Shown here: in pieces, positions 3,518 through 46,316 of the stretch
Layout of the letters: the number at the start of each line of letters is the position of its first letter
Position numbering within the stretch: the first letter of the stretch is position 1
Assembly (NCBI GenBank): GCA_964566255.1
Contig: CAZMID010000001.1
Span: 10,799 to 74,798 of the forward strand
DNA: 64,000 nt
Reading direction: 5' to 3'
Source of the DNA: an uncultured Planctomycetia bacterium
GTDB taxonomy: Bacteria > Omnitrophota > Gorgyraeia > Gorgyraeales > Gorgyraeaceae
Notes under the pieces: model-generated
Told to the model about the DNA's origin: nothing
Databases searched by the model: none
The model's input: only the letters and a program-made list of their open reading frames with translations
Program-made: the position numbers and the translations under genes

Positions 3518-3529
3518 TTTTATTCTCCT

Positions 3530-4178: not shown

Positions 4179-7100
4179 TTACACACCAGAGGCAAGTTCA
4201 TCAGCTATTTCCTTATTCAATCTATCACTAACCATATTTAATTCCATTCCGTTTGCAAAATCTTCAAGGAGTCCATCCAAGTTACTCTTGTCCTCGCTGC
4301 TTAAATTAAGCACCTGTATCCTTTTTAATTTAAGCTCATTTATTCCTCTTCCATTTACTACCTTTATCATATCAACATAACCTTCTAGATTAATAACCTT
4401 TTTATATTCATCCGCATTCATAGCTATTATTTCTATTGCATATTCTGAACTAGCATACCTGTCGCTAATCAATCTAATAAAACCTACATGTCCAAGCTCT
4501 ATTACTCTCTCCGCAGAGAAAGTAATAATTTGATTAAGCGGCCTCTTTGATTTTTCTAAATTATCAGGGCCTTTTTTTCCTTCGCGTATCATATCTAAAA
4601 CAGTATCCATTGTTTCCTCTAAGATAGTGTGTGAAGGGCCATACATAGGAATGCGAGAAATATTCATATCTGCGACTAACAATTTGTTTTTTCTTTCTTC
4701 TGTTATAGGTATTGTATCTAGTGCTCTAAAAATAGAAGATGCGATAGATCTTTGTTCGCCCTCATTTTCTTCTTGTTGTAAGTCAAGAAAAAGCTTCGTT
4801 AGTATATAATTATAGGTCAACTTTCCTGATTCTTCGAGGATTGCAAATGCCTCGTTACGGACATCAAGGTCAGGATCTTGTATGTCAGCACGGGCTTGTT
4901 CAATATGTTTTTCTTCAAGCTTAGGTGTTATCTCTACCTTTGATTCAACTCCTTCGAAGATGCGCGGTGTAATCCCATTTATTTTCTTATTAGATAGCTG
5001 GGCAGTAGTAGCGATGCGATGAGATTTATGATCATCCCCAACTGATGCCTCCCTAATAATTGAATATACAGCTTCGGTTTTACTCAATTCACCCAAGGCA
5101 GTTATAATAGCTACCATAATAGATACATTAGGATCTGAATCATCAACTGGTCCTTCAGATAAAGCTAAAATATGTTTATCTTTTGCTTCTTTCCATAATT
5201 CTAGAAGTTGTTTTTCCGCCAGAATCCCACCAAGACAAACTATGGCAGTTGTTCTCAATGGCATATAACGATCTTCATCTTTTGCCAATTTTAGTAAATC
5301 TGAAATTATACCTTCTTTTCTTTCTCCTCGAGACATTATTTTACCAAGCCTAGACTTGATAGGATCTAAAGTAGAATCATCATACTTTCCCAAATGATAT
5401 CCTAAATCAGCTGTAAGTTTTATTATTTCCTGTGTTTTTGTTAAAGATTGTAATACATCTCTAAGATTTTTAATTGATCCATCACGCATACTGCTATGAG
5501 GATCTGCTAATCCATCTTCAAACACATTAGGACCACTTTTAAGCATTACTGCACTATATAACTTTCTATTAAAATCAAATATAGTTTCATTACTTGCTAA
5601 TATATCTCTTGATGTTGAGACACTACCAGATATACTCGATGCTCCATCAGGAGAAATACTCATTCCTGCTGAAGTAATCATTGCTTTATGCCTAACTTGA
5701 TCCTTTGCTAATTCAATCAGATCTCTTGCAGCATCTTTATCTACGATAAAAGTAACCCTATCCTGATCTTGCAAAACTGATGCAGGGACCTCAGGTGTAA
5801 TTTTTCCTGCCACTGAGGCCTTAATAGCATATCTTTTCTTTGGCCCTGTAGCTACCAATAAGATCTTTTTTGCCTTTAAAATAGTAGATATGCCTTGACT
5901 CATTGCATAAGGAGGGACTGCTCTTTTATTTCCATCAAAATACCTGGAATTTGCGTTTATTGTACTTGAAATAAGCTCTACAACCTGTGTCTTTAACTTT
6001 AAAAAGTCTTCAAGGCTTATATCAAGCATTGCTTCAATAAAAGCAATATGACCCTCTTCTCCTATGCCAAGTAGCTGAAGATCTAGACCTTCTTCATTCG
6101 TTGATTTCATAATAAGATCTTCGTAAATCTCAGCTTCTAGTTCAGGAACATTTGCAAGGCCATCCATTAGATGAATATTGCTATCTTTTAATCCAGCATC
6201 TCTAATCATTGATGTCAGTATATGATCATAAAGAAAATGTCTATAAGATTCTTTATTATAATATTGCTCACGATACTCTCTTGAATATCCATATGCACTC
6301 CATACATACTCATCAAGGGCAAATATAACTACATTTGACCAGTCAATTTTTTCTTTTCTTGTAATTTCAATTAATTTTTTATATACACCTTCTTGTGTTC
6401 CACCAGTAGCTAAACCAAGAAAGGTCTTCTTTCCTCTAGCATTTTTTTCTTTGATTAGATTTGCGATTTCTTGTGCAGCACGTAATTCAGCATCATCTTT
6501 AGTCTCTGTTATATCTAACTTTTGTACCTTAGATATATCCCCGAGGGCATCTCCCCATTCAAAAGCCTGTGATGATGACACTAGCTCAACTAGAGATTTC
6601 ATATTAAAGCCAGTGGTTAGACTCATATTACTTGCTAATACAGTTGTTTCCTCTTTAGAGGTATCTGGCATATCGACCTGCTGTAAAATCTCTCTAAAAT
6701 AATACCCTGATCTATAATTCTGAGGTTTTTCTCTTGTTAAATACTCATCTATCTTAAGCTGTAACCCTGTCCTTTTAACAAGCTGATTTAGCGCTCTATC
6801 CATCTCAACAAGAGAATTCTCTTCCAGATGATTTCCTTCTACGGTGCTATTTACATTAGCATGGCCTAATTCGTGAAAGAGGCGTTCTGAAAGGATAGTT
6901 TTTACTGCCTGAGGGTAAGTAGGGTAAGCTAAAAGAAGGTCTTTGATGAAGCCTGCACTAAAAATGATTTCTACATCGCCGGTATCAAAGTTATAGTATC
7001 TTATAGAATTTAAACGTAAGCTCTCTGATACCATGACTTTTATTGGAGGTGCACGATTGTCTGGAGATAGGAACAAATCTTGTAAATATTCTTTCAGATC

Positions 7101-10100
7101 AGCATCACCTTCTACTAAACCCTCTAAATTATCCAGTGCATCATTTAACAAACTGGTTAAATTAAGGGCATTTTCACCTATAGGTGAAAATCTTTGCCCT
7201 TTAGATCTAGATAAATCCAACCCGCATTCCATATCATTTATGAAAGTATCTTTAATGTCAAAATAACTATCCAGCAGCAAATCTCCATGGCGTCTAGCAA
7301 AAGCCTTAAGCTTTCGTTTTTCTATCTGAGATCTATAAGTTGCAAATTCTGCTGCACTTCTTGCTCCTTGATAGGTTGGATCACGGCGGTCTATTCTAAT
7401 CTCTACTGGAACCTCAGGAAAATTTTCACTCAACAAGCTTTGCGCCTTATTAAATAGCATCTCGCCTATCCTGCCTCTAGCTAAAGCCCCAGTTAAAACT
7501 GTATACTTCATGTCAAAATATTTATATAACTCTACTATTGACAGCGCAAGATACTTACCAAGCTGTTCTATGGCATCCTCGGAATCGCTGTTTTTCTCTT
7601 TAAGCCTAGCTTCGATCTTTCGAACAAGTTCAATGCCTTCTAATGATTTGCTTTCTTGCGGGTAAAGCTCTTTTATGCCCCTGAAAGAAGCATAATATCT
7701 ATCCAATCCTTTTATTTTGCGATAGTCATGTTCACGTGCAAATGGTGACATATCAACAACCCTTTTTGCTAATTCAGTTAAATAAATAGAAGGTTTTAAA
7801 TTTTCATCCATAAAACCTCCTATCAAACTGTCGGACGGCGACAACACCAATACCTTTTCTCCTTCCAAATCCGTAAATAATAAGGTAGATCCAAAGGCTG
7901 TTACATTCCCGTCATTTTTTAAACTCACAGGAATTCTCTTATTTGTTAAGCTGTAAAATCTCTCTGATATCTCATCTGCCAAATTTTTTATCATATTGTA
8001 CTGCTGATCCCACCTATCAAACTCCAAAACCTTCATATCAAATAAGATGCTTGCAGATATGGCCATTTTATTATCCCTTACTGCCCCAGGCCAGGCTATG
8101 CCAATAGCATCTATATCTCTTAGAGCTCTTCCAGCATTATTGATAGATTCGTTAATAAGACTATACACTAAATAATCAATAAAATTGCTGTCTTCAAAAT
8201 TTTTCCGATCCAAAGTAAATTGTTCCTTATATAAAGGTTCGCCATTCTCCAAGATAACAATGTATCCGTGAGTCTTGCTAAGGCTTAAGCCTAATGTCAC
8301 ATCCTCATAGCGATTAAACCTGTAATAAACACCTTTCGCAGGACTTTCCTTTTTAGCCTGGATCCCTATCTCTGCTAGCCGCTGAGTATACTTGGTAATC
8401 TCGAAATCTACACCATAATATTGACTTAAATAACTGCTAACGGTCTCTGCCTCTTGCCCTTTGTCGAAATATTCGTCAAATGAGTCCTTTACAGCTTCAA
8501 AAACACTGTCCTCTGCATCAACTGCTACAGTGTCTGAACCCAACGTAACAGCTCCATTATTTATTAAAGTCGCTATATATCTGGATACAATAGCTAACTC
8601 TTCTTTGCTCATAAGCTTTGGGATAGATATATTCAAATCACGCTTCAATCTATCTTGTTCTAAAAACAACAGCGTAGTTTTATTTGTATTACCCGGATCT
8701 AATATCGCAATCATGGAAAAGATATCATCCCATTTGGTTATACTAAAGAGCTTCTCATGCTCTTCCCTCCAAATATCTGAAAAGAGTGTAGAAGCCGGCG
8801 ACTTAATTCGAGATTTATCTCCGTCAATTTCTTCTAGTGAATCCCTTAAGGCTTTATCCTTTTCCACTAAAACATCAAGAAAGAGATTAGCAAGCTGTTT
8901 CTTATCTGTAGTTCTAGATCCATTTTTCTCAAGTCTTTTTAGAAAATGCCTCGCCTCTTTCACATTGTTATCGAATATCCTAAGTAAGACCCCTTCCTTA
9001 ACTACTCCTTTTTTTAATAGAAAATCTGCAAATTTATAAGGGCTATAACCAGCAAACTTTTCATATTGCGCTAAACCTTCTGCCTTTAACCTCTTTTCCT
9101 GCCATGAGACTAGAGGCTCCTGATGTATATTATGTAAAGGCATTCCTCTTCTATTCAAATATGATATGTCCTTTTTTGTTATGTACAAAGCTCCTCTTTG
9201 CCTGCCAGCTTCTGAACGTGAACTATATAGTTCTGGGGGCTGAATAAAGGAACTGAGGTATGCCCGTTCTTCCTTGGTGACAGGCGCCTCATTCATGCCT
9301 CTAAAATTTTCATGCCTAAATAAAAAATATACATATTTATTCATATAAAGCATATCCTCTATATTAATTTCTTCCTTGCCTTTTTTGTCAACATATAAAG
9401 ATCCACCGTCTTGTCCTTCTAAACTAAAATAAAATTCTTTTCCATCACTTACCCTTACCAATACGTGTCTCAGAAGAGAAACTTCTTTTCTGCCAATCAC
9501 TTGTTTTTTTCTATTCAGATACTTAGGTTTGCCATTATCATCATTGCTAGAATGTGTATATTCAACATTTGGTGAGGTAGAATATATGGATTTACCTTCT
9601 TTTGTTACCTTCCATCTGAATAATGCCCCTGTGGCATTATCTATGAATAATGGGTTATGTTTTTTTGAAAAGTAATCTATATTATTATCATACAAAGGAG
9701 AGCCATCTACATATATAAGAGGGCTCTCTGTATTCACATAGCCCTCCTTTCCTTTACCTGTAGTAATAATATCACCTTTTTCATTTATAGGGTCTCCGAA
9801 TTCATTTGCCTCCCTTTTCTTCTGTTTAGTTTGAATCCAAGTGTCTATTTCCTTTGCGCTTGTCCTATTTACTACAATATCACTGAATATCTCACTGAAT
9901 AAAACCACTCTGCCAAGGCGTTTCTTTGCAATACGCTCTATCATCCTTACGCAATCTTCAACGCTATAATTATTCATCTCATCCATATTCACATGATTTA
10001 ATAAAAGTATCTTTTTGGCATCCTTCCTATTAATTAATGCCTCAATCACCCCATCTATAGCCAATTGGCAAACCAGACTTGAAAACAGACTTCCTGCCCC

Positions 10101-13100
10101 AACTATAATAGTACCTATTCTAGGGTCCTTTATAGATTCTATATATTGATTGCTCGGGCGAGGTAATAATTTAAAATTGTCCTTACTCACAGATACATCA
10201 ACATCTGCTATTTTTGAATCATGGCGCAGGACATCAATAAAACGCTGCCCATATACACGTGCGGGCAAAGCATCTTTTCTTTCTCTTACTATGAATTCTT
10301 CTACAGCATCTTTACCAAAAATCTCAACTAACCGCTTTTCCTCTTCCTTAGTTACTTCAGGATAATCTGCCCAAAGAATAGCTTCATTATAAGTAGGATA
10401 AAAAATTTGAGGGATGCCCACCTTTTCTATATCAAGTCCCCATACCATAGCCAATATATCATTGGCTAATGTCGCTTTTTCCTCATCTACTCCATTTACT
10501 CCTTTATCTCCGCATCTCCTATATGCCCTAAGTTTAAAATATACAGCAAGGTTATTGAGATTTCTTATGCTGTTGCCCTTTAAGGTAAAAGTAGTATAAA
10601 GGTTTTTATTCTTGGGTGAAAGGAATTCATTGTCAATTATCCTGGCTATATTTAACTGGTCCGACAAGAACGAAATAACACCTGGTGTATTAAAAAACTG
10701 CTCCTCCAACGGTCTATTTTTATCTTCAGCCAATAACAGTTTAATTTTTTCTAATAAAACTTCCTCTAAAGAATCCGACTCTTTATCTGGTCTGTAGTCA
10801 AGTAAATCTGCAAAGGTTGATTTCCGCATAACATCTGCCAGTACACCCGGACCATCTCCTTCAGTAGATACGCTTCCGAAAATAGGTCTTATAGATTCTA
10901 TAATTTTTCCTGTACTGCCTCCGTCATCAGTGGAAGGAGAGCCCACCTTAATATTTAAACCTAGTAGCTGGCATGCCCTAAGAGTTACCTCTTTCATGCC
11001 TCCTCCGCCTCCAATTACCAGAACCTGTGGAGGAATCTCTTTTCTAATCTCTATGGCTTCTTTTTCTTTATGCGACAGGACCCTATTATCCAAGACTCCC
11101 AAAATTACCCTAGCCACAGTATCTCCAGTAGAAAATGCCTCTTTTAGTATTTCACCGTCAAGGATTTCTTTAACTTGAGCTTTACTCTTATTAGAATACC
11201 TAAGCTTATATATATCAAGGAGTGTTTTATAATTATCACTTGTTTCGATTTCACGAATAGAAATAGGACGTCTTATTTCTGCATACCCTTTAAGCTCAGA
11301 GTGTAAAAAATAATTGTTTAGGTATTTTTCTATAACAAAATTTCTTCGCTGAGGAGTACACTTCAAGAGAGTACCTAAGAATCTAAAGTAACAGCCTGAC
11401 TTAAATGCTGGCCTTTGAGTCTCAAAGTAATCACTGATTACTTCTTGGGTGGTTTTAGTTCCTATAATCTGCTCGCTAACCAATTTATGGAACTCAATGT
11501 CTCTATGAATCAGTTTTCTCTCTTCAGCTCTTTCTTTTTCAACTAAGTCCAGCTCGTTATCATGGCCTAATTCATGAAAATATCTCTCTGCAAGAATTGT
11601 TACAACAGCCTCAAAATGAGATTCATAATCTTTAAGAAGTGTATCTATATAGGATTGGGAAAAGATTAATTCTACTTCTCCAGTACTAGCGTTAAAGTAA
11701 CGAACGGCGGTTAGGGGGAGCATGGATGATACCTTTACTCTTATTGCCGGGTCGTTGTTATCAGGCTTTGATAATACACTTGCAAAATATTCTTTTAACC
11801 CAGGGTCGTCCTCTATTATAGACTCTATAATTCCAAAAGATGCGTTTGAAAGTTCTGCTAATATTGATGCCTGCATATAATCATCCGCTGCTTTGAATCT
11901 CTGAGGTTCAGGCCTAGATAAATCCAATGTTAATTCATATTCTTCTTTGAAGGAACCTTCTAGTGCAGAATAAAAGATTATATTTCCATCACTAGCAAAC
12001 GTCTTTAGCAATCCACTAGCAGTATGTCTCCTCTCAACCTCTTCATAATCCAAAGACTCCTTTAAATCCTTATATGAAAACCCTTCAAACTGCTTAACAT
12101 CCCAGGTTTTCTTAGGGTCGACTTCGATATCTACCTCTACTTCTATGTTTCTTTTTGTTCCTTGGGTATCTACAGGAATATCGGTAATTACTTTGTCGGC
12201 ACGAGCTATTACTTTATCATCTGGCCTATAGAGCGCAACTGCCAAGCTTCCTGAATGTGCATCTATCTCATCTACGACACTGTTCACTATAACAGCGCCT
12301 TTTCTAACGATACCTTTATTTATACGTGTATTACCTAAAATAACAGCGCCTTTTTCTACAACTACGTCTTTACCTAATACAGCTTTATTGTCTATAATTG
12401 AGGAGGGCTGCATAAAAGAATATCCTGTAACCTGCCTCAATATGTCATCACTAAGAAGATTAGTGCATCCTAAGTAATAACGCTGGTTGGTTCCTAAGTC
12501 TGTTATATAGGTCTCTTTTCCTGTATATACGAATCCAAAATCTACTCCGGCAGCAGCTAATTCTCCTGCACGCTTGCCAACATCCTGATTTAAATCCTGA
12601 GCCTTTAAGTTGATATCTGGTCCATTGGGAATGCCTTTTGGATCAACAAATCTCTCAATAGCTTCCTGGTCAAGATGGTATACAGTAAGGTTATTGACAG
12701 GATGGTATACTGTATCAGAATATCTTTTTAAGTAATCTATCTCCTGGGGTGACTTTCTCTTATACATCGCTACAAATCTGCCGTTACTATCTACTTCTAT
12801 CTTGCCAAAATAATCGAATTCTGGATGGCCTAGTTCAACCCCGCCTCCTAATAACTGAACCCCATGTTCACCTAACCCTTTAACAGGCTCGGTTATACTG
12901 AATATCCTGTCTGTAGGCATACTTATTATACCTGTATCATTCTCTCCTAAAAGCTGCATACTCTGACGTATGGCCTGAAAGATATTAGGTTCGCCGTTTA
13001 TTGAACTCATAAACCCTTTATTGCCATAGCCATCTGAAGCAGTAAGAGGATATGTCCTCTTGCCGTCTCCTCCTGTCAAGACTGTAACTACACGCTCTTT

Positions 13101-16100
13101 ATCAAAATTTACCCCGCCCTTGTATAGTTTATCTAAGCCTCGTAAAAACGCCGAGAGGTTTCCATCAATATCATCATCCTGGACATAGATTATGACAGGG
13201 ACTGTTCCTTCTTCTCGTCTTTTCCTCATTGCATCCTGAATAACCGAATCATCAGTATCCTTATTTACTACCAGGATAACACTATTTTGAGGGATAACTT
13301 TCCCCCTTGCGCCTTCCAGAGACTGTTTAATTTGTTCTAGTCCGTCTGATTTTAATAAAAGAATAATGGCATCATGATACACTCTTGAATCAGCCAGCCC
13401 TTTTTCTAGGCGTGCCCTCTGTATGTGTATTCCATACTCTGGTGAATCGCTAAATCTGCGAGCTATCTCTTCTTCAGATAAAGGAGCGCCCTGCGTAGAA
13501 TAAAGTCCGTCTGCCACCTGCAGACCCATATATGCTGCACCTACTGTCTGTCCGAACCTTGCGGCAAATTCACTGTTAAATTCCTTGCTTATACCCTTTC
13601 CTACCTGTCTTACATAATCATCTTCTGAGGCGAGCAGTATATTTACTGTCTCTCTATCTCCTATTTCTTTGGTTAAATATTTCCTTGCTGATTCAGTTAT
13701 TAATCTACCAGCCATACCGCTGGTACACGCCCCGAACAATACAACATGTTCTATTTTAAGGTCTTTTAAGCTAGTTGCTACGGCTACTGCGAGATAAGAG
13801 CCAATGGTCTTAAAGATTTTTTCTGCTTCTTGCCTTTCAGGGTTTGTTTTAGGAAGCTCTAATTTACTCTGTACATACTTTAACTTAGGCCTGTTTCCGA
13901 TTGCCTTTTTAAACTCTTCTAGTTTACTCCCGGTTAAACTGGCCTTGACATGAGAGACAATATCATCTTTATTATCAAGATTAATTTTTTCTTTGGCAGC
14001 GAATCTTCGGGCTACAATCTCTTCAAACCCTTTATCAAAATCAGGCCATACCTTGCGGGCAAGATGTAAAACGCCTCTTTGTGAAGTATACTGCTGAAGA
14101 GCGCCTCTTATCCTCAACCCCTCATGATATCCAGCTTCACTGGACAAATCTATACTACATTTACCCATCTCACCAAGATAGTCATTCAATTGACCTTTAT
14201 TATCTACATATCCTGCGGCCAATCCAGTGCCTAAGCTTAAGGCCAATACATTATTTAGCCCTAATGTACCGGCTAAAGACAATGCTGCTGCATCTCCATC
14301 ATTTAATACTCCTACAGGCACTCCTCCCAATGATTCGCTTATGCGCCTTCCCATAGGAGCCACCTTTGTCCAAAATTCTTCAGAACCTATTCCTCTATAT
14401 GCCCTGGTACCTTCCTGAGTAATCCTTCCATTGACAACAGCCCCTGCTGTACTAAGGCCTATGCCATCAAGTTTAACCTCTGAAATACCAGCAGTATATA
14501 CTCCTTCTATAAAGCTTTCTATTTCCTCAAGAGGGGTATTGGCATTATGCGCCAATTCTTTGAGTTTTCCTTTCAATTCACGTTTTGATCTAGAGCTAGT
14601 TTTTTCAACCTCTATGGCGGCCTTGGCTAAGCGTACCATGGTGACAAAATAACTTAAATGTTCATCTGAATTCTTGAATTTATACGACTCCCAGTTTATT
14701 TCCTTGGCAAAGATACAGCGGCCTTCTATAAATGAAGCTACCTTTACATCGCTTGCGCCTACATCCATTCCTACAATCATACCTCTATGATAATCTTGGG
14801 CAGGGGCTGATTCTTGCTGACTTAACTCGATATCTTCTGAATCAATCTTATCTGCAGACTCTATCTTAAACTTAGTCTCATATATACAGCTAAAATAAGA
14901 AGGGATACGGCTGTAGAGACCTTTTGTAAATAAACGTTCTATTCTCTGGTATAGTTCCTTAGGAGCCTTTATCTTTATGCCTTCAGCGCCAATACGTGAT
15001 AGGGTACTTGCGATCTCGAGGCATAAATAATCAGCCAATTCATCCAATTGGGTATCATCCATTCTTGTAATCGCAGGAATAGCAATTGACCTTCTGTGGT
15101 AGACAGCACCCTTGCTTGTAAGGCCTATTTCCACAGAGTTCTCTGCAGATAATTCCTCATATTGACGTTCCCTTTCAGTGATGGGTGCAAAGGATATACC
15201 TTCATTACTTGCTAATACGTCTGATTCTTTTCTAGTTAAATAATGTTCAACCTTGCCAAAGAAGCGTTCCACATCCTGTTCTGCATCTTTGACAGTTGAA
15301 TCAAATGTAATAAGCATTGTCTTACGGCCTCTATCTACTGTAGCACCTATTGCAGCTATCAGCTGCGCCCTTATTAAATTATCGCTAAATTCTAATGCGT
15401 CGGGTTGCTCCATAACATCGGGCATAAATAATGTATCAACCCACATGTCTTTACCATATTGCTTGTTCTGTTCAGTAGAATGAAGCTTATCAGGTGCTGG
15501 TGAAATTTTAGAAGCTATCTTAAGGCCATTTGTAAATATTTCAGTTTTTGCTGCTTGCAAGATACCTTCCATATCTTCTGTCATTCTTCCATAAAACCCG
15601 AATTCCTTTGCCTCAAAATCAGGTTTTGACTCTAATATTTTTATAATCGCTGCTGCATATACTGCAGGCGCATCATTCATATCTGAACCTAATTTTCTAA
15701 CTCCAGTCTCGAGGTCATCCTGAGTAAGAATACCAGCTGCAATCAACCTGTCATAATATAAATTGAGCTTACCAAATGAAACACTCTTCCAGTCTTCTGG
15801 AATCTCTACTTTCTGATCTGACCCTAAGTCATCCATTATCTTAGTTAGAATCTTTTTATAATCCTGTACTCCTTCTTGATCAACAGCGCAAATATCCCAT
15901 AGATAAGCCACTGTTATTACAGATCTCTGAAAGCCAAGCATTATACCTCCCAGAGAATCTATATCATCAACATCTATTTCAAATACAGGGTATCTATTTT
16001 TCTTCAAATGGCTCCAGAATTCATCATTGGTCTTTTTGTCTCCTACATTTATCCTCAAAAACACCCTGTCACTATCTTCAACATCCTTAAGGGACGCGAT

Positions 16101-19100
16101 AGAAAGATCCTCATCATAAAATAGGCTGATGCCTTTTCCTTCCTTTCCTAAAGATTCTTCAATGAGCTGCTCTGCCCACACAGGCAGATTTTGAAGTTCC
16201 TTTGGCACCATTAGAGTCAACTTATCCTTACCTAATTCAGCTGCCATATAGTAAAGATAGGCACCCAAGATTATAAAGGTATCCTCGTTTATATCTTTAA
16301 TATCATTCATCTTCAGCGCTACCTCAAGTATTTTTTCTACTTTTTCAGGCGCCGAAATCGCCAATACAAGGAGAAATACCAATGTCTGAGGGCTAGTAAA
16401 CCTGCCCCCTATATCTCCTTCTCCATTAAGCTGTATCTCTCGCTGTTCATAACCATGTTCATCCATTGGAGAACCTTTATCAGTTATAACCCACATATGA
16501 TCTTCGGGTTCAATATTAAATTTCTTAAATAAGTCAAATAACTCTTCAAAATATCCTTTCTGATCTACGGTTTCCCTAGTAGTTCCTGATTTACTGATAG
16601 GAATGACAAGGGTTTCTAATAATGCCTTTTCTAAAGAACCAGCATCTTCTGCTATTACATCAAACATATACTTTATTTCTTCAGGGGTTGTTGTTCTAAA
16701 ACTAAATATCTTATAGCCTCCTGGCTCTCCAAATGTTATTTTAACGACCTGAACACTTAAACCAGATCCGCCCATTCCACAGAATATAATATATTTAAAC
16801 TTACTTCTTATCTCTTCAGCATCGTCAAGCACACTCTGTATCTTTTCAGGATTTTTAAGTAGCCATTTCAGATTCTTAACGGTCCAACCTGCGCGGTTCT
16901 TTGGGGGTTCTTCAGGGTTACTTGCATCAAAAATCGCCTTAAGCATTTTCGAAGAAACCAAATCCTCTGCTTCCTCAAAAGATGTTCCATAGACTGCATG
17001 CATCTGGCCGCGTATATCTTCCTGACCTAATTGCAGCAAAATATCATCTAATCTGGTATCCTCCATAATTCCAGTATCTAAGGTATGATTACTTGCTAAC
17101 ACATCTGATTTCTTAGCTTTTGCAATTGTAAAAGTTGCCTCAGCTGCTGGAGATGGTTCATATGATAGATCCATTAATGCCTTTTTCATTGCAGGACCAC
17201 TCAGAGTAGGATCAATTTTCTCTCCAGATGCTACACCTATAAAATCACCTATATCTGTAACTATGGTTTCTTTGGTTTGAGTATGAACTATTATTATGCT
17301 CTCTGGCTGGACCATTACATTAATATCACCTGTAAGCGTCTCTCGGAATTGAGGCGTAAACATCTTCTGCAGTTTTGCTGCTAATTTTTTACTTTCTATA
17401 CCTTTATCCCTAAGAACAGCTACCCCAACAGAAACTACTGCCATGAGAATTCTTTGAGTCTTTAATTCTTTACCGCCTTCTATATTAGGAACAACCTTGT
17501 TATTAAAATCATCCACAAAATCTGGTTTTACAAATGTAGCTATGATAGGGCACCTTAAAGTATCGTTTAAACCCTTAAGAAGTTCTTCTATGGGTTTACG
17601 TTTTCCTGAGAGTAGAAAATGATAATTCTCTTCATCTATATCAGTAGATGAATAAGGGGATACCACTACATAGGAATAGCCTTTTTCTCTTAGAAGCTTT
17701 GTGATACCTTTTGTGTGGAATCCTCCTGCAACAAGACTAGCTACCTTAGCATCGCGCTTTTCTATCTCAGAAACAGAATTTCTTACCATTGCAACGTCAC
17801 GCTGTCTTACAGTCTTATAGAAGTCCTCAAGCCCCTGAAGATGAAAATCTATGAGATTTGGATTATAGTCTATAAAGGCGGAGATATCATGTTTTTTAAG
17901 GGCTGGCTTTAGAAAGGATTTAAAAAAACCTACTTTGTGAGACTCTCTATTAGCTAAGTAATAATCAAGTTCTTCATTTGATACCTTTAAATTAAAAAAC
18001 CCTTCCAAGAATTTGATGTTCCGGAGGGCTTTAATGAATGTCTTTTGTTCGTCAGTCTTTGCAAGTCGCATCTTCACTTCATAGGTAAGATCTTCCATTT
18101 CAGTGAAGAGCTTCGTAGAATCTAAAGAGTTTACCTTTGTGAGATAGCTTAAGAAGTCATTAAGATTAGGGTATTTTGAGATCTTATCCGGGATATGTTT
18201 TAAGGCTAGATCTTTTAAATAGCTATAAAATGAAAAAGGGGATATCTTCTGTTCCCTAAAAAGCTTGGCCTTTACCATCAATGCATCTTTATCTTTGCGC
18301 AATTTTCTGCCTGAAAGCTTTGCCTGCAGATTTAAAAGTAGATTCTGAGATTCCTGCATTACCTTTACTTGATTAATCTTTTGTTCCTGCTCTGTAGCCT
18401 CAGTTAAAAGTGAGATGTTTCTATACTTATCTGTGGAGATGTCGAATTTTCTTACATAGGAAGTAAGATGTTTTAAAAATGCGTCTGTTTCTATTTTTTC
18501 ATTCTCATAATCAACTTCTTTTTGGTCTAAATTTAGAAGCTCTTTTGAATAAATCTTAGATTTAAGCTGATCTAATGCCTTCTGAGCCTGAGAGATAAAG
18601 ACCTGGGATTTGGGGGAGAATTTCATAATGCGGTTAAATTCTATGATGTTCTTAAAATAGATATCTCTATCTTCTATCCCCCAGATAGGTAGGTCTGGGT
18701 ATTTTGTAATAGAGAGGTATTCTTCTCCTGTTAGTTCACCTGAATTTATAAATAGACGTGCTGTCTTTTCCCTTATCTCATAATCTGGAAAGCTTGACAC
18801 GCTGGATGTATCTACTTCTCCATCTGCTCCTTCTGAGCAGACTAAGCCCATATTGTAATCTTTTAAAAGAATCTCTAAGATACTCGCAAGATTAAGTTCT
18901 GCCTCTGGGTTTGTGTGTAAATCCTGTATGTGGACTATAAGGCGTGAATCTTTTGAAGGAGATTCATATACTTCTGTGACCCTTCCTAATTCTGACGGTA
19001 TATGTATCTGAGAGAGGTCTTTTAAATGGGATGAGAGGACGACTTTTGCTTCTTTTCTATGCTTTTCTGCCTTCTTAGTATCTTCTCCTTCAAAGATAGA

Positions 19101-19283
19101 CTTTTTCTTATTGAGGCGATCTTCTCGCTGGGTACTAAGCTTTTTATAATCTACTTTTTTGTCCTTGAAGAGAGAGCGACGACTTGGAGCTCCATAAGCA
19201 GTATTAGTGCATATAAAAGCTATAAGAACTATTACAGAAATAATCTTTTTAGCTGTCTTACAATTCATATATCTTCCTCTCAT
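4179..19283 (-). CDS. Giant (5034 aa) secreted multidomain protein carrying a PGI-like SIS domain, two ROK sugar-kinase domains, a sugar-1-P nucleotidyltransferase with LbH, a CofD/YvcK domain, a NagB-like deaminase domain and HEAT repeats. It also has two HELGH zincin-like motifs inside an internally duplicated block.
   Basis: The reading frame is uninterrupted for 15,105 nt in DNA at roughly 33% GC, which cannot occur by chance. The N-terminus MRGRYMNCKTAKKIISVIVLIAFICTNTAYGAPSRR is a Sec-type signal peptide. An AGGA SD favours the second ATG at 19268. Domain motifs, with approximate aa positions: GMGGSG and DIGGRFTS (PGI/SIS, ~800-1250); MIVGMDVGASD and VLNDGDAAALS (ROK 1, ~1500-1800); VLTGGDGKRTYPLT plus hexapeptide repeats (NTP transferase with LbH, ~2060-2470); FHELGH (2570 and 4137); VIGGGGG...STDDGGSTG...IIVGAGSLFSS (CofD/YvcK, ~2740-3130); NDGNVTAFG (ROK 2, ~3690-4010); LGLATGGT...FALDEY...GIGEEGHIAF (NagB-like, ~4270-4520); DPDLDVRNEA-type HEAT repeats (~4640-4800). 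Confidence 0.9.
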   Translation of the reverse strand: MRGRYMNCKTAKKIISVIVLIAFICTNTAYGAPSRRSLFKDKKVDYKKLSTQREDRLNKKKSIFEGEDTKKAEKHRKEAKVVLSSHLKDLSQIHIPSELGRVTEVYESPSKDSRLIVHIQDLHTNPEAELNLASILEILLKDYNMGLVCSEGADGEVDTSSVSSFPDYEIREKTARLFINSGELTGEEYLSITKYPDLPIWGIEDRDIYFKNIIEFNRIMKFSPKSQVFISQAQKALDQLKSKIYSKELLNLDQKEVDYENEKIETDAFLKHLTSYVRKFDISTDKYRNISLLTEATEQEQKINQVKVMQESQNLLLNLQAKLSGRKLRKDKDALMVKAKLFREQKISPFSFYSYLKDLALKHIPDKISKYPNLNDFLSYLTKVNSLDSTKLFTEMEDLTYEVKMRLAKTDEQKTFIKALRNIKFLEGFFNLKVSNEELDYYLANRESHKVGFFKSFLKPALKKHDISAFIDYNPNLIDFHLQGLEDFYKTVRQRDVAMVRNSVSEIEKRDAKVASLVAGGFHTKGITKLLREKGYSYVVVSPYSSTDIDEENYHFLLSGKRKPIEELLKGLNDTLRCPIIATFVKPDFVDDFNNKVVPNIEGGKELKTQRILMAVVSVGVAVLRDKGIESKKLAAKLQKMFTPQFRETLTGDINVMVQPESIIIVHTQTKETIVTDIGDFIGVASGEKIDPTLSGPAMKKALMDLSYEPSPAAEATFTIAKAKKSDVLASNHTLDTGIMEDTRLDDILLQLGQEDIRGQMHAVYGTSFEEAEDLVSSKMLKAIFDASNPEEPPKNRAGWTVKNLKWLLKNPEKIQSVLDDAEEIRSKFKYIIFCGMGGSGLSVQVVKITFGEPGGYKIFSFRTTTPEEIKYMFDVIAEDAGSLEKALLETLVIPISKSGTTRETVDQKGYFEELFDLFKKFNIEPEDHMWVITDKGSPMDEHGYEQREIQLNGEGDIGGRFTSPQTLVFLLVLAISAPEKVEKILEVALKMNDIKDINEDTFIILGAYLYYMAAELGKDKLTLMVPKELQNLPVWAEQLIEESLGKEGKGISLFYDEDLSIASLKDVEDSDRVFLRINVGDKKTNDEFWSHLKKNRYPVFEIDVDDIDSLGGIMLGFQRSVITVAYLWDICAVDQEGVQDYKKILTKIMDDLGSDQKVEIPEDWKSVSFGKLNLYYDRLIAAGILTQDDLETGVRKLGSDMNDAPAVYAAAIIKILESKPDFEAKEFGFYGRMTEDMEGILQAAKTEIFTNGLKIASKISPAPDKLHSTEQNKQYGKDMWVDTLFMPDVMEQPDALEFSDNLIRAQLIAAIGATVDRGRKTMLITFDSTVKDAEQDVERFFGKVEHYLTRKESDVLASNEGISFAPITERERQYEELSAENSVEIGLTSKGAVYHRRSIAIPAITRMDDTQLDELADYLCLEIASTLSRIGAEGIKIKAPKELYQRIERLFTKGLYSRIPSYFSCIYETKFKIESADKIDSEDIELSQQESAPAQDYHRGMIVGMDVGASDVKVASFIEGRCIFAKEINWESYKFKNSDEHLSYFVTMVRLAKAAIEVEKTSSRSKRELKGKLKELAHNANTPLEEIESFIEGVYTAGISEVKLDGIGLSTAGAVVNGRITQEGTRAYRGIGSEEFWTKVAPMGRRISESLGGVPVGVLNDGDAAALSLAGTLGLNNVLALSLGTGLAAGYVDNKGQLNDYLGEMGKCSIDLSSEAGYHEGLRIRGALQQYTSQRGVLHLARKVWPDFDKGFEEIVARRFAAKEKINLDNKDDIVSHVKASLTGSKLEEFKKAIGNRPKLKYVQSKLELPKTNPERQEAEKIFKTIGSYLAVAVATSLKDLKIEHVVLFGACTSGMAGRLITESARKYLTKEIGDRETVNILLASEDDYVRQVGKGISKEFNSEFAARFGQTVGAAYMGLQVADGLYSTQGAPLSEEEIARRFSDSPEYGIHIQRARLEKGLADSRVYHDAIILLLKSDGLEQIKQSLEGARGKVIPQNSVILVVNKDTDDSVIQDAMRKRREEGTVPVIIYVQDDDIDGNLSAFLRGLDKLYKGGVNFDKERVVTVLTGGDGKRTYPLTASDGYGNKGFMSSINGEPNIFQAIRQSMQLLGENDTGIISMPTDRIFSITEPVKGLGEHGVQLLGGGVELGHPEFDYFGKIEVDSNGRFVAMYKRKSPQEIDYLKRYSDTVYHPVNNLTVYHLDQEAIERFVDPKGIPNGPDINLKAQDLNQDVGKRAGELAAAGVDFGFVYTGKETYITDLGTNQRYYLGCTNLLSDDILRQVTGYSFMQPSSIIDNKAVLGKDVVVEKGAVILGNTRINKGIVRKGAVIVNSVVDEIDAHSGSLAVALYRPDDKVIARADKVITDIPVDTQGTKRNIEVEVDIEVDPKKTWDVKQFEGFSYKDLKESLDYEEVERRHTASGLLKTFASDGNIIFYSALEGSFKEEYELTLDLSRPEPQRFKAADDYMQASILAELSNASFGIIESIIEDDPGLKEYFASVLSKPDNNDPAIRVKVSSMLPLTAVRYFNASTGEVELIFSQSYIDTLLKDYESHFEAVVTILAERYFHELGHDNELDLVEKERAEERKLIHRDIEFHKLVSEQIIGTKTTQEVISDYFETQRPAFKSGCYFRFLGTLLKCTPQRRNFVIEKYLNNYFLHSELKGYAEIRRPISIREIETSDNYKTLLDIYKLRYSNKSKAQVKEILDGEILKEAFSTGDTVARVILGVLDNRVLSHKEKEAIEIRKEIPPQVLVIGGGGGMKEVTLRACQLLGLNIKVGSPSTDDGGSTGKIIESIRPIFGSVSTEGDGPGVLADVMRKSTFADLLDYRPDKESDSLEEVLLEKIKLLLAEDKNRPLEEQFFNTPGVISFLSDQLNIARIIDNEFLSPKNKNLYTTFTLKGNSIRNLNNLAVYFKLRAYRRCGDKGVNGVDEEKATLANDILAMVWGLDIEKVGIPQIFYPTYNEAILWADYPEVTKEEEKRLVEIFGKDAVEEFIVRERKDALPARVYGQRFIDVLRHDSKIADVDVSVSKDNFKLLPRPSNQYIESIKDPRIGTIIVGAGSLFSSLVCQLAIDGVIEALINRKDAKKILLLNHVNMDEMNNYSVEDCVRMIERIAKKRLGRVVLFSEIFSDIVVNRTSAKEIDTWIQTKQKKREANEFGDPINEKGDIITTGKGKEGYVNTESPLIYVDGSPLYDNNIDYFSKKHNPLFIDNATGALFRWKVTKEGKSIYSTSPNVEYTHSSNDDNGKPKYLNRKKQVIGRKEVSLLRHVLVRVSDGKEFYFSLEGQDGGSLYVDKKGKEEINIEDMLYMNKYVYFLFRHENFRGMNEAPVTKEERAYLSSFIQPPELYSSRSEAGRQRGALYITKKDISYLNRRGMPLHNIHQEPLVSWQEKRLKAEGLAQYEKFAGYSPYKFADFLLKKGVVKEGVLLRIFDNNVKEARHFLKRLEKNGSRTTDKKQLANLFLDVLVEKDKALRDSLEEIDGDKSRIKSPASTLFSDIWREEHEKLFSITKWDDIFSMIAILDPGNTNKTTLLFLEQDRLKRDLNISIPKLMSKEELAIVSRYIATLINNGAVTLGSDTVAVDAEDSVFEAVKDSFDEYFDKGQEAETVSSYLSQYYGVDFEITKYTQRLAEIGIQAKKESPAKGVYYRFNRYEDVTLGLSLSKTHGYIVILENGEPLYKEQFTLDRKNFEDSNFIDYLVYSLINESINNAGRALRDIDAIGIAWPGAVRDNKMAISASILFDMKVLEFDRWDQQYNMIKNLADEISERFYSLTNKRIPVSLKNDGNVTAFGSTLLFTDLEGEKVLVLSPSDSLIGGFMDENLKPSIYLTELAKRVVDMSPFAREHDYRKIKGLDRYYASFRGIKELYPQESKSLEGIELVRKIEARLKEKNSDSEDAIEQLGKYLALSIVELYKYFDMKYTVLTGALARGRIGEMLFNKAQSLLSENFPEVPVEIRIDRRDPTYQGARSAAEFATYRSQIEKRKLKAFARRHGDLLLDSYFDIKDTFINDMECGLDLSRSKGQRFSPIGENALNLTSLLNDALDNLEGLVEGDADLKEYLQDLFLSPDNRAPPIKVMVSESLRLNSIRYYNFDTGDVEIIFSAGFIKDLLLAYPTYPQAVKTILSERLFHELGHANVNSTVEGNHLEENSLVEMDRALNQLVKRTGLQLKIDEYLTREKPQNYRSGYYFREILQQVDMPDTSKEETTVLASNMSLTTGFNMKSLVELVSSSQAFEWGDALGDISKVQKLDITETKDDAELRAAQEIANLIKEKNARGKKTFLGLATGGTQEGVYKKLIEITRKEKIDWSNVVIFALDEYVWSAYGYSREYREQYYNKESYRHFLYDHILTSMIRDAGLKDSNIHLMDGLANVPELEAEIYEDLIMKSTNEEGLDLQLLGIGEEGHIAFIEAMLDISLEDFLKLKTQVVELISSTINANSRYFDGNKRAVPPYAMSQGISTILKAKKILLVATGPKKRYAIKASVAGKITPEVPASVLQDQDRVTFIVDKDAARDLIELAKDQVRHKAMITSAGMSISPDGASSISGSVSTSRDILASNETIFDFNRKLYSAVMLKSGPNVFEDGLADPHSSMRDGSIKNLRDVLQSLTKTQEIIKLTADLGYHLGKYDDSTLDPIKSRLGKIMSRGERKEGIISDLLKLAKDEDRYMPLRTTAIVCLGGILAEKQLLELWKEAKDKHILALSEGPVDDSDPNVSIMVAIITALGELSKTEAVYSIIREASVGDDHKSHRIATTAQLSNKKINGITPRIFEGVESKVEITPKLEEKHIEQARADIQDPDLDVRNEAFAILEESGKLTYNYILTKLFLDLQQEENEGEQRSIASSIFRALDTIPITEERKNKLLVADMNISRIPMYGPSHTILEETMDTVLDMIREGKKGPDNLEKSKRPLNQIITFSAERVIELGHVGFIRLISDRYASSEYAIEIIAMNADEYKKVINLEGYVDMIKVVNGRGINELKLKRIQVLNLSSEDKSNLDGLLEDFANGMELNMVSDRLNKEIADELASGV
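6640..7135 (-). repeat. Copy B of the duplicated HELGH module inside the giant ORF (aa ~4050-4215).
   Basis: LKEYLQDLFLSPDNRAPPIKVMVSESLRLNSIRYYNFDTGDVEIIFSAGFIKDLLLAY...ILSERLFHELGHAN...RSGYYFREIL. Confidence 0.6.
11330..11850 (-). repeat. Copy A of an internally duplicated ~170 aa module with an FHELGH motif inside the giant ORF (aa ~2480-2650).
   Basis: LKEYFASVLSKPDNNDPAIRVKVSSMLPLTAVRYFNASTGEVELIFSQSYIDTLLKDY...ILAERYFHELGHDN...KSGCYFRFL aligns residue by residue with copy B. The nucleotide string atggcctaattc[a/g]tgaaa is shared. Confidence 0.6.
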
Positions 19284-19419: not shown

Positions 19420-21123
19420 CTATAAAAAGGTGGGAATTTTCTCACTTATATACTGTTTTTCTAATTCTATAATCTTTCCTGTCTTACGGATCTTTATCTC
19501 TAATTTTCCCTTTTTTAAACCTTTTTCTCCTATAACTATTATAATGGGTATGCCTATTAATTCAGCATCATTAAACTTAACACCTGCTGTCTCATTTCTA
19601 TCGTCTATTAAAACTTCTATCCCCTTATATATCAAGGAGTTATAAACTTCATCCGCTACCCTACAAACATCCTTATTTTCATAGTTTATAGGTATTACAA
19701 TTACCTGAAAAGGTGCCATAGTCTGTGGCCAGATTATACCCTTTTTATCATTATGCATCTCTATGGAAGCTGCTATAATCCTATTAACACCTATACCATA
19801 ACAACCCATCACTAGTGGCTTCAACTTCCCATCTTCATCTGAAAATTCCGCCTTCATTGCTTTTGAATATTTAAGGCCTAATTTAAATACATGTCCCATT
19901 TCTATGGCATGCTCTATCTTCAATGATTTCTTACACTTAGGACAAATATCTCTATCAGTGATCATCCTTAAATCAGCCCAATCCTTAACTTTAAAATCCC
20001 TATCAAAATTTACATTTATAAAATGTTTATCTTTTTTATTGCTTCCTGTTACAAAATTACCGAGATCTCTTATGGAATTATCTGCTATAATCCTTATTCC
20101 CTTAAGTCCTACTGGTCCTGAAAAACCCAATGGGCCTCCTGTTACCTTTTTAATAATATCTTCGGATGCCATTTCTAAATGACTACATCCTAAATACTTC
20201 TTAATCTTTACCTCATTTGCCTCGTGGTCTCCTCTTATTAGAATTGTTACTTCTTTTTCATCTGCCAAATATATAAGGGTCTTTACCATCTCAATTGGCT
20301 TTGCCTTTAAAAGAGATGATACCTTTTCAATGGTTGTTACACATGGAGTATCTACTTCTTTTAATGGTTTTGGTTTAAGTTTTACCTTCTTTCCCTTTCC
20401 TCTATCAATACATTCTGCAACAGTTATACTCGCAGCATACCCGCAAGATAAACAATGTGCTAAAAGATCTTCACCGGCCTCAGCTAATACCATAAATTCA
20501 TGTGATACATCTCCTCCCATAACACCTGTATCAGCCTCTACTGCAATAGCCTTTAAGCCACATCTTTTAAAAATAGCCTCATATGCTTCATACATCTTCT
20601 TGTAACTTTTATCAAGGCCAGATTTATCTCTATCGAAACTATAGGCATCCTTCATTATGAATTCACGGCTTCTTATTACTCCAAATCTCGGCCTCACCTC
20701 ATCTCTAAATTTAGTCTGTATCTGATACAAAGTTATCGGGAGTTCTCTATATGAACGAATATGATTTCTTACAAGATCCGTTATAACTTCTTCGTGGGTT
20801 GGTCCAAATACCATAGTGCGATTATGTCTATCTTTAAACTTAATAAGATCCTCTCCTAAATCTTTATATCTTCCTGATTCATGCCATAGTTCTACTGGCT
20901 GAAGGGACGGCAAAAATAATTCAATAGCGCATGCTTTATCCATCTCTTCGCGGATAATATTTTCTACTTTTTTAAGGACTTTTAGGCCCAGCGGAAGGTA
21001 TGTATAGGCACCTGATGCAAGCTTTCTTATGAGGCCAGAACGAATCATTAACTGGTGACTTACAGCCTCTGCCTCAGCTGGAACCTCTTTTAAAGTGGGT
21101 ATGAAAAATTCTCTCCAACGCAT
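19420..21123 (-). CDS. proS: Prolyl-tRNA synthetase, bacterial type with editing insertion.
   Basis: 567 aa starting MRWREFFIPTLKEVPAEAEAVSHQLMIRSGLIRKLASGAYTYLPLGLKVLKKVENIIREEM, with class II aaRS motifs. Confidence 0.95.
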   Translation of the reverse strand: MRWREFFIPTLKEVPAEAEAVSHQLMIRSGLIRKLASGAYTYLPLGLKVLKKVENIIREEMDKACAIELFLPSLQPVELWHESGRYKDLGEDLIKFKDRHNRTMVFGPTHEEVITDLVRNHIRSYRELPITLYQIQTKFRDEVRPRFGVIRSREFIMKDAYSFDRDKSGLDKSYKKMYEAYEAIFKRCGLKAIAVEADTGVMGGDVSHEFMVLAEAGEDLLAHCLSCGYAASITVAECIDRGKGKKVKLKPKPLKEVDTPCVTTIEKVSSLLKAKPIEMVKTLIYLADEKEVTILIRGDHEANEVKIKKYLGCSHLEMASEDIIKKVTGGPLGFSGPVGLKGIRIIADNSIRDLGNFVTGSNKKDKHFINVNFDRDFKVKDWADLRMITDRDICPKCKKSLKIEHAIEMGHVFKLGLKYSKAMKAEFSDEDGKLKPLVMGCYGIGVNRIIAASIEMHNDKKGIIWPQTMAPFQVIVIPINYENKDVCRVADEVYNSLIYKGIEVLIDDRNETAGVKFNDAELIGIPIIIVIGEKGLKKGKLEIKIRKTGKIIELEKQYISEKIPTFL

Positions 21124-21126
21124 ATT

Positions 21127-22182
21127 TTAGATTCTTCGGATATCCTTTAATAATTCCTTAACAATATCCTTTTCTCTTACTATCCTCACAGATTTCCCTT
21201 TTTTAAAAATTATGCCTTTATTTTTTCCGCAGGCAATGCCTATATCAGCTTGTTTTGCCTCCCCTGGACCATTTACCTCGCATCCCATAATAGCTATATC
21301 AGGAAAAGAATTTTTTCTAGTTTCTAACCTAGAACCTACGAGAGACTTTTCTACGTCTCTTACTATCTTTTGTAAGTCTACCTGACATCGACCACAAGTC
21401 GGACACGATATTATATCTGGCTCAAATCGTCTTAGATTAAGTGCCTGTAAAATATTTTTAGATGCTATTACTTCTTCTAAAGAATCCCCCGTCAATGAAA
21501 CCCTGATCGTATCTCCAATACCTTCTAAAAGTAATGCCCCTATCCCTATAGAAGATTTAATAATCCCCTTTGAAATAGGTCCGCTTGCTGTAATACCCAA
21601 GTGAAGCGGATAATTTGATCTTTTTGAAAATTTTCTATATGCCTCGATGGTCGTCAATACACTAGATGTCTTTAATGAGACTATTATATCGTAAAAACGC
21701 TGTTTTTCCAAGATTTTTATATAGTCCAAAGCTGAAGTTACCATGGAATCTACAATGTTCTTCCTTTTATGTTTTACTGAACCTGAATTTACTCCCACTC
21801 TAATAGGAATACGTCTTTTTTTAGCTAGTCTTACCACCTCTTTAATATGTTCTTCTTTATATATATTGCCAGGATTAAGTCTTATTTTATCTGCGCCATT
21901 TTTAATTGCAATGAGAGCCATCCTATAATCAAAGTGAATATCTGCAACCAAAGGAATATTTATTGATTTTTTAATCTTTTTTATAGCGGAAGCTCCCTCA
22001 AAATCTTTTACAGCAACCCTTATTAATTCACATCCTACTTTTTCTAAGCTCTTGATCTCTTTTATAGTAGAAGTGATATCCCTGGTATCAGTCTTTGTCA
22101 TAGACTGAATAACAATAGGTGCCTTACCACCAATCTTTAATTTTCCGACTTTAATTTGTTTTCTCATTATTACTTTTGCCAA
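21127..22182 (-). CDS. ispG: 4-hydroxy-3-methylbut-2-en-1-yl diphosphate synthase (GcpE).
   Basis: 351 aa. KVGKLKIGGKAPIVIQSMTKTDT and C-terminal cysteines CPTCGRC...GCEVNGPGE are typical of IspG. Confidence 0.95.
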   Translation of the reverse strand: MAKVIMRKQIKVGKLKIGGKAPIVIQSMTKTDTRDITSTIKEIKSLEKVGCELIRVAVKDFEGASAIKKIKKSINIPLVADIHFDYRMALIAIKNGADKIRLNPGNIYKEEHIKEVVRLAKKRRIPIRVGVNSGSVKHKRKNIVDSMVTSALDYIKILEKQRFYDIIVSLKTSSVLTTIEAYRKFSKRSNYPLHLGITASGPISKGIIKSSIGIGALLLEGIGDTIRVSLTGDSLEEVIASKNILQALNLRRFEPDIISCPTCGRCQVDLQKIVRDVEKSLVGSRLETRKNSFPDIAIMGCEVNGPGEAKQADIGIACGKNKGIIFKKGKSVRIVREKDIVKELLKDIRRI

Positions 22183-42990: not shown

Positions 42991-42992
42991 AG

Positions 42993-43867: not shown

Positions 43868-43886
43868 ACTATACCTATACCATACC

Positions 43887-46295: not shown

Positions 46296-46316
46296 ATCCG
46301 TGGTAACTTATATTAT

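Follow-up and report, generated by a model that had tools for sequence, protein, structure and literature searches.

The question raised by this locus is what the long stretches of its largest protein represent, given that they carry no motif that can be named. The locus lies in a stretch of 64,000 nucleotides, hereafter the window, from contig CAZMID010000001.1 (GCA_964566255.1, positions 10,799 to 74,798) of an uncultured bacterium deposited as Planctomycetia and placed by GTDB in the Omnitrophota, family Gorgyraeaceae. The protein is encoded by a giant open reading frame (ORF) located between proS and rimP/nusA/infB:

window 4179..19283, minus strand: giant ORF, 5,034 amino acids (aa)

A preliminary description of this DNA had left about aa 34-790 and aa 3130-3690 unassigned and had proposed them, together with the C-terminal 230 aa, as candidate novel domains, for example for targeting, adhesion or translocation. 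We lean towards the view that the unassigned stretches are lineage-specific parts of a modular Omnitrophota multi-enzyme protein, in which an N-terminal domain (the "head"), accessory domains and a tail frame a changeable cargo of sugar enzymes. The domain limits, conservation, co-occurrence of head and tail, synteny and motif enrichment reported below are direct observations.

The 15.1-kb reading frame is single and open, without a stop, and both strings quoted in the preliminary description, YVDGSPLYDNNIDYF and EFYFSLEGQDGGSLYVDKKGKE, are found in it. Pfam matches were obtained for a PGI-like module (aa 889-1048), two ROK modules (aa 1636-1886 and aa 3864-3962), CofD (aa 3010-3145) and Glucosamine_iso (aa 4261-4509), and NCBIfam added a GlmU/GlgC-like nucleotidyltransferase with hexapeptide repeats at aa ~2060-2350. 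At E<=10, neither Pfam nor NCBIfam assigned a credible family to aa 1-728, to aa 3130-3690 or to the last ~120 aa, and the region ahead of these last residues had weak HEAT-like matches alone. The absence of a named motif therefore stands for the body of the two stretches but not for their edges, which belong to the N-terminus of the PGI-like module (aa ~733-790), the end of the CofD core (aa 3130-~3170) and the start of the second ROK module, ROK2 (aa ~3652-3690). The coordinates first given for them, 7134-19184, correspond to aa 34-4050 and so take in the whole region in between, and the label of a W/F-rich stretch has to be dropped (W 0.7-1.3% vs 0.5% overall, F 4.4-5.3% vs 4.0%). The proposal of novel domains is supported for most of the unassigned sequence: the head, a CofD-associated domain, a ROK-associated domain and the tail are all conserved and none of them has a Pfam or NCBIfam name.

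The first stretch is made up mainly of the head, followed by a weakly conserved "neck":

window 17544..19016, minus strand: head, aa 90-580, predicted alpha/beta core with a ~270-aa helical insertion, predicted hydrolase
window 17100..17543, minus strand: neck, aa 581-728, weakly conserved, present in fused forms only and absent from the ~570-aa stand-alone heads

Searching the protein collection with aa 1-728 returned 68 homologues, every named one from Omnitrophota; many are stand-alone proteins of ~565-580 aa, and others occur as fusions with PGK, NagB, FHA, ParB-N or an intein. Among the GTDB species genomes, at least 506 stretches confirmed by tblastn encode a relative of the head, with several copies per genome, and in all of the 78 loci fetched the head is found at the N-terminus of its ORF, usually with 1,000 to more than 3,300 further aa behind it. 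In the data searched the head is restricted to Omnitrophota. The neck searched alone gave marginal matches only. In the AlphaFold2 model of aa 1-600 (mean predicted local distance difference test score, pLDDT, of 80; above 90 in the core; low confidence for aa 30-90), the core covers aa ~95-580 with strands at 100-106, 115-121, 147-150, 154-157, 200-203, 514-520 and 537-543, and is broken by the insertion (aa 206-478, ~270 aa), a helical bundle that makes up more than half of the head.

From fold, motif and motif spacing, we consider it likely that the head belongs to the Tiki/TraB/ChaN/erythromycin-esterase superfamily, and this placement is the best-supported new annotation of our analysis; the head falls in no named family. 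In structure prediction followed by Foldseek, a check already suggested in the preliminary description, the erythromycin-esterase (Ere) family took ranks 1, 2, 6 and 7 in the PDB (EreC, 6xcs and 6xcq; Bcr135/136, 3b55 and 2rad), with E-values of 0.04-0.3, which are not significant (best E 0.04, Foldseek probability 0.77). At the sequence level, Q120, H123 and E151 are invariant and D121, R495, D496 and G520-G521-F522-H523 near-invariant; among 66 near-full heads, 30-77% identical to the query, the first motif is kept in all and the second in 59. The Tiki-fold catalytic set comprises a Glu-x-His, a second Glu, a second His and a basic residue (PMC6254334). A 2His/2Glu-type set is also present in the head, its first acidic residue being Asp, as is a basic residue of the RDxxM/RNxxW type, R495, located 28 residues ahead of H523. 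The H123-E151 and R495-H523 spacings are both 28, compared with 28 (H-E) and 29 (R-H) in the Tiki-fold endopeptidase RRSP (E3900/H3902, E3930, H4030, R4001), 28 for the His-Glu pair H85/E113 of Bcr135 (PMC6254334), and 26 and 23-27 for the corresponding spacings in nine TraB/GumN sequences. The [D/E]-x-H, E, R and GxxH elements of the head are thus in the same order and at near-equal spacing to those of RRSP and Bcr135, and further domains are appended to the core in RRSP as they are here. The head also has the pattern RDxxM...GxxH...G...L...GY in common with TraB/GumN and ChaN; PF04187 (ChaN/Tiki) gave sub-threshold matches in 8 of 48 head-family members, and in P0067, the sole member checked singly, the match covers the C-terminal RDxxM...GxxH region.

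Several observations speak against this placement. Besides the non-significant E-values, the Foldseek TM-scores are low owing to the helical insertion, and Asp121 stands where the superfamily has its first Glu. PF04187, PF01963 and PF05139 all stayed below threshold, the best PF04187 match (E 0.004, 17.6 bits vs a cut-off of 27.7) coming from distant members only. Head profiles, either full-length or with the insertion removed, recovered no Ere, ChaN or RRSP entry among the PDB sequences, and the NCBIfam search with the head returned nothing. The hhalign comparison of the head core with the nine-sequence TraB/GumN alignment, built from plasmid hits, reached a probability of 7% (P = 0.005), even though it correctly paired RDxxM...GxxH...G..L..GY, and the comparison with E. 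coli YbaP alone failed to match. The head further differs from the Tiki/Ere superfamily in the ~270-aa helical bundle between its half-sites, in the Asp for the first Glu, and in being always N-terminal in long multi-enzyme proteins or a ~570-aa stand-alone protein.

If the placement is correct, the head is a predicted active hydrolase with D121-x-H123, E151, R495 and G520-x-x-H523 on its modelled alpha/beta core. The alternative that survives best, which we nevertheless regard as rather unlikely, is that the head has no catalytic role and serves as a membrane anchor, scaffold or ligand-binding domain, comparable to the haem-binding ChaN or the inactive Tiki-fold of PMT, with its His, Glu and Arg residues binding a metal or cofactor. 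Non-enzymatic members do exist in the Tiki superfamily, PMT being without the motif (PMC6254334), the helical bundle accounts for more than half of the head, and the only Pfam hints come from the ChaN model. However, the full D-x-H/E/R/GxxH set is kept in 59-66 of 66 heads at the identities given above, a pattern expected of an active site. A metallophosphoesterase reading of 'VHIQDLH' (D-x-H) was also considered and rejected: there was no PF00149 match at E<=10, that fold was absent from the top 50 Foldseek matches, and the model, largely helical with only seven short strands, disfavours it as well.

Ahead of the head, two short conserved segments form the N-terminus of the protein:

window 19191..19262, minus strand: hydrophobic helix, aa 8-31, with a conserved end TN(T/I)xY(G/A)AP, signal peptide or signal anchor
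window 19017..19190, minus strand: Lys/Arg-rich segment (RSxFKxKKVDYK...), aa 32-89, conserved, low pLDDT

The segment at aa ~8-31 is the one strongly hydrophobic non-core segment of the whole protein, and aa 8-28 are modelled as a hydrophobic helix. Its conserved AYG|AP-like end resembles a signal-peptidase site. The sequence that follows directly (aa 34-90, 33% K+R) is conserved too, and because of this basic segment the helix may be either a cleaved signal peptide or a membrane anchor. The presence of enzymes that need ATP or NTP, together with the basic segment after the helix, argues for a cytoplasmic chain.

The second stretch, aa 3130-3690, is a composite and not an independent unit. 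It contains the end of the CofD core, a beta-rich insertion, an Arg-rich domain, a linker and a ROK-associated domain, and a copy of the latter is also found ahead of the first ROK module, ROK1:

window 9774..11036, minus strand: YvcK/CofD (UPF0052) core, aa 2750-3170, from PF01933 and YvcK structures
window 9396..9773, minus strand: beta-rich insertion of variable length (IYVDGSP / LFIDNATG / LYVDKKGK), aa 3171-3296, pLDDT <50
window 8994..9395, minus strand: CofD-associated C-terminal domain (NRYV...RSExGRYRG...), aa 3297-3430, conserved, pLDDT 80-98
window 8772..8993, minus strand: helical linker, aa 3431-3504, without homologues, pLDDT <55
window 8331..8771, minus strand: ROK-associated N-terminal domain, copy 2, aa 3505-3651, ahead of ROK2, from homologues and a hidden Markov model (HMM)
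window 14793..15146, minus strand: ROK-associated N-terminal domain, copy 1, aa 1380-1497, ahead of ROK1, from the HMM

A word-indexed search with aa 3130-3690 found nothing, while an exhaustive HMMER search found 28 proteins, with whose CofD cores aa 2780-3150 can be aligned. The CofD module is matched by PF01933 (E 5.9e-14), and Foldseek with the model of aa 2750-3660 retrieved the YvcK-family structures 2ppv, 2o2z and 2q7x (E 3e-11, probability 1.0, TM-score on target 0.66), which account for aa 2750-~3170. In this 911-residue model the CofD core has a pLDDT of ~90 and the domain at aa 3297-3430 one of 80-98; the low confidence for the insertion (aa 3176-3296) and for everything past aa 3434, that is the linker and the ROK-associated domain, weighs against the division into domains proposed here. 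The insertion ranges from ~20 to more than 150 aa in homologues (~125 aa here), and this copy is common only to P0069, a fragment of 173 aa with 61% identity. In every homologue with enough upstream sequence, the CofD core is followed by the ~120-aa, Arg-rich CofD-associated domain, with the consensus NRYV..L.HP..R....IT..EL..L.FL.Q...LY..RSE.GRYRGA.YAT..DI.YL...GI..R.IHEV. Since the YvcK structures (~310 residues) are fully aligned inside the first ~410 residues of the model, this domain is an addition to the fold and not its C-terminus; it has no PDB or Pfam relative, and judging from its alignments it belongs, as an accessory domain, to a subfamily of CofD proteins. The module is thus like YvcK/GlmR and CofD in its PF01933 match and YvcK fold (aa 2750-3170), and unlike them in its size (~680 aa vs ~310), its beta-rich insertion, its Arg-rich C-terminal domain and its position within a multi-enzyme chain.

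The last part of the stretch goes with the ROK modules. PF00480 covers only aa 3864-3962 of ROK2, and aa 3505-3651, modelled with low confidence, has homologues of its own (P0080, P0090 and P0095), located in P0080 directly upstream of the mapped ROK/sugar-kinase match. The HMM built from aa 3505-3651 also matches one other head-bearing ORF and aa 1388-1475, just ahead of ROK1, so that both ROK modules would carry one and the same accessory domain of ~145 aa. These domains suggest a lineage-specific regulation or substrate binding of the YvcK/CofD and ROK enzymes in Omnitrophota. As a separate lead, Foldseek gave weak matches (E 0.15-1.5) to GNAT acetyltransferases, including the GlcN6P N-acetyltransferase GNA1, somewhere in the model of aa 2750-3660 (window 8304-11036), which could not be placed on a region or confirmed by sequence; such a likeness would be intriguing for an amino-sugar pathway, if true.

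At the other end of the protein, the C-terminal 230 aa are a novel domain only in their last ~120 aa, the preceding part being the one with HEAT-like matches:

window 4182..4553, minus strand: tail domain, aa 4911-5034, conserved, ending ...ELASGV-COOH, from alignments and an HMM

Identity is 22-34% between the tail and the aligned C-terminal ends of P0001, P0004 and P0054, and a database search with it added two short proteins only. Its HMM also recognises the C-terminus of a giant protein of Ca. Gorgyraea atricola (locus L001) and those of seven other head-bearing ORFs, and all tail-domain proteins end in ...ASG[VI] or a close variant, the ...LASGV of the present protein standing at window 4182-4193. 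Among complete head-bearing ORFs, 23 of 33 end in [G/S/N/A/C][V/L/I]-COOH; for 405 other ORFs taken from these loci the share is 6.7% (Fisher p = 4e-17, a value that overstates independence since the head-bearing ORFs are mutually related, their tail sequences nonetheless being very diverse). Such an ending is present even where no tail domain can be detected (ORFs of L013-L087).

With these parts in hand, the idea that the stretches are export modules of a secreted giant protein, serving targeting, adhesion or translocation, can be weighed, and we find it improbable. In its favour are the hydrophobic N-terminal segment with its AYG|AP-like end, the conserved C-terminal motif, which could be a sorting signal, and the signal peptides and membrane association that published work predicts for many Omnitrophota giants. 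Yet adhesin, repeat, lectin, dockerin and secretion-system domains were all absent from the Pfam and NCBIfam matches, the cargo enzymes depend on ATP or NTP and are of cytoplasmic type, the hydrophobic helix gives way to a strongly basic and conserved segment, and the middle stretch co-varies with the CofD and ROK enzymes. Adhesion or translocation, as first suggested, finds no support here, the head being hydrolase-like and the middle stretch consisting of accessory domains of YvcK/CofD and ROK enzymes. Still less credible is that the stretches are mostly linker or fast-evolving, functionless filler. The word-indexed search of the middle stretch was indeed empty, and linker without conservation, named beforehand as the outcome that would speak against novel domains, does occur, but in two places only: aa ~3171-3296, where a single homologous fragment was found (pLDDT <50), and aa 3431-3504, where there was none (pLDDT <55). 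The head, CofD-associated, ROK-associated and tail domains are conserved across many genomes, the first two being confidently modelled as well, and filler is thereby refuted for ~900 of the ~1,450 residues concerned.

The modular organization favoured above is also marked by a short motif at the borders between modules, and it includes two further modules, possibly of a new kind:

window 17088..17099, minus strand: LASN no. 1, aa 729-732, just ahead of the PGI-like module
window 15204..15215, minus strand: LASN no. 2, aa 1357-1360, between the PGI and ROK1 modules
window 6627..6638, minus strand: LASN no. 3, aa 4216-4219, ahead of the NagB module
window 5589..5600, minus strand: LASN no. 4, aa 4562-4565, after the NagB module
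window 11334..11936, minus strand: HELGH module 1 (HExxH), aa 2450-2650, paralogue of module 2
window 6639..7229, minus strand: HELGH module 2, aa 4019-4215, 40% identical to module 1

All four copies of LASN in the giant ORF stand at a module border; ~0.1 copies are expected, and none of 20,000 shuffles reached four. In 34 close head-bearing ORFs there are 13 copies of the motif where 1.8 would be expected (the 23 remaining permutations of its letters average 1.9), and no enrichment was found in the distant head clade. From 21 distinct contexts the consensus is L-A-S-N-(E)-(G/N)-(L/I/M), with an invariable last position. The motif is also found in L019, L020, L023, L031, L040, P0001, P0008 and P0054, and in L019 and L023 it lies a few to ~30 residues upstream of PGI and PGM modules. 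In the comparison with proteins from related genomes, proposed at the outset, head, tail and LASN motif all recur in other Omnitrophota head-bearing ORFs. We regard the LASNx[G/N][L/I/M] junctions as candidate processing sites, and among the side results of the analysis this motif and the C-terminal one are the most interesting. Each HELGH module sits downstream of a ROK module and has no Pfam, NCBIfam or PDB match; the two are possibly a novel zincin-like domain. A role as the general junction protease is ruled out for them, because the complete LASN-bearing ORFs L019, L020, L031 and L040 are without them.

These observations can be brought together in a tentative scheme. The N-terminus would tether the chain to the membrane, and the single chain would form an assembly line of hexose-phosphate and amino-sugar enzymes. 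The head, if it is the active hydrolase that its model predicts, would act on the chain of which it is part, with the LASNx[G/N][L/I] junctions, the C-terminal tail or both as targets, and it may also dock the conserved small-hydrophobic C-terminus; cuts would serve to free the sugar-phosphate enzymes or to arrange them at the membrane. Cleavage by the head at LASN, or binding of the tail by it, is a speculative proposal, to which we give a low likelihood. Equally conjectural is its broader form, according to which the long multi-enzyme proteins of Omnitrophota might be true bacterial polyproteins, with the Tiki-like head as an endopeptidase cutting its own chain at LASNx[G/N][L/I]. The giant proteins of Omnitrophota are an open puzzle and surveys ask whether their chains are cleaved; according to one such study, the giants have N-terminal regions without identifiable domains and their cleavage points are unknown (bioRxiv 10.1101/2023.11.21.568195). 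If true, cleavage by the head at LASN would supply these sites. The locus offers three handles on the problem: a widespread head with a predicted hydrolase site, a 7-residue junction motif just ahead of enzyme modules, and a tail with a conserved C-terminal motif.

The genomic setting of the giant ORF is itself conserved:

window 19420-21123: proS, neighbour of the giant ORF
window 3530-4012: rimP, neighbour of the giant ORF
window 2288-3517: nusA, neighbour of the giant ORF
window 288-2291: infB, neighbour of the giant ORF

The order ispG-proS-[head-bearing gene]-rimP-nusA-infB (window 288-4012 and 19420-22182) is found with the same slot in at least 19 other Omnitrophota genomes (loci L011-L055). 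In these genomes the slot is occupied by head-bearing ORFs of 2,000-3,200 aa, and the cargo is different in each: PGM/PMM, class II FBP aldolase with GlpX, PGI, UDP-glucose pyrophosphorylase with PGM, PGK or NagB in the relatives, and a PGI-like module, two ROK kinases, a GlmU-like nucleotidyltransferase, a YvcK/CofD-like module and NagB in the present protein. Read from these sequences, the proS-rimP slot is a hotspot of module turnover and, with its varying cargo, a natural system for module gain and loss. In Ca. Gorgyraea atricola (GCA_030765235.1, L001 1-11719), a gene for a giant protein (at least 4,352 aa) bearing the same tail precedes a stand-alone 572-aa head gene, after which comes rimP, and head and cargo can therefore be split and reordered. 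This separate head gene, and a G+C content that rises to 0.40 at 12-16 kb within the giant gene of the window (~0.35 elsewhere), could be taken to indicate that separate genes were fused into the giant ORF by an error of assembly or gene calling, but this can hardly be so, as the frame is open over 15.1 kb and head-bearing ORFs of 2,000-3,900 aa occupy the same slot in many independent assemblies.

Three further observations were made in the window. The region of higher G+C (window 12001-16000) corresponds to ROK1 and the nucleotidyltransferase, and these modules may have a different origin. An antisense ORF of 192 aa with a TTG start lies inside the giant gene (window 8461-9039, plus strand) and is most likely spurious. 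Further along, several small ORFs with prepilin-like N-termini (e.g. MKGFTLIETI, GFTLIELV) stand beside larger ORFs at window ~42490-49971, minus strand, a group that, from its sequences read by eye, suggests a type IV pilus or type II secretion cluster.

In regards to known systems, the closest parallel in the way of working, and in this respect only, is offered by MARTX toxins and viral polyproteins, which are likewise very long chains of modules joined by short linkers with a recurrent site. MARTX toxins are cleaved at recurrent sites between their modules. They differ from the present protein, which has no cysteine protease domain, RTX repeats or toxin effectors, whose cargo consists of central-metabolism enzymes and for which cleavage is only proposed; on the side of likeness, the MARTX effector RRSP is itself a Tiki-fold endopeptidase (PMC6254334). 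Among the giant proteins published from Omnitrophota, an N-terminal region without identifiable domain and the possibility of cleavage have both been raised, as they are here. The Archaeovorins (bioRxiv 10.1101/2023.11.21.568195) are unlike the present protein, in which Pfam and NCBIfam scans detected no dockerin, TSP3, C39 or S8 peptidase or SecA domain. Term searches of that study and of bioRxiv 10.64898/2026.06.07.730766 turned up no description of the head family, the conserved tail or the C-terminal motif, the junction motif not being among the terms. The second of these surveys describes a class of "multi-enzyme metabolic cluster" proteins with a cut-off of 10 kAA (thousand amino acids), compared with 5 kAA for the protein described here. 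The likeness to this class is nevertheless clear, as it comes from the same phylum and has many distinct sugar-metabolism Pfams (ROK, PGM, HEAT) tiling one chain, and in our protein, too, many Pfams are present with none dominant in copy number, namely PGI, ROK twice, hexapeptide/NTP-transferase, CofD, Glucosamine_iso and HEAT.

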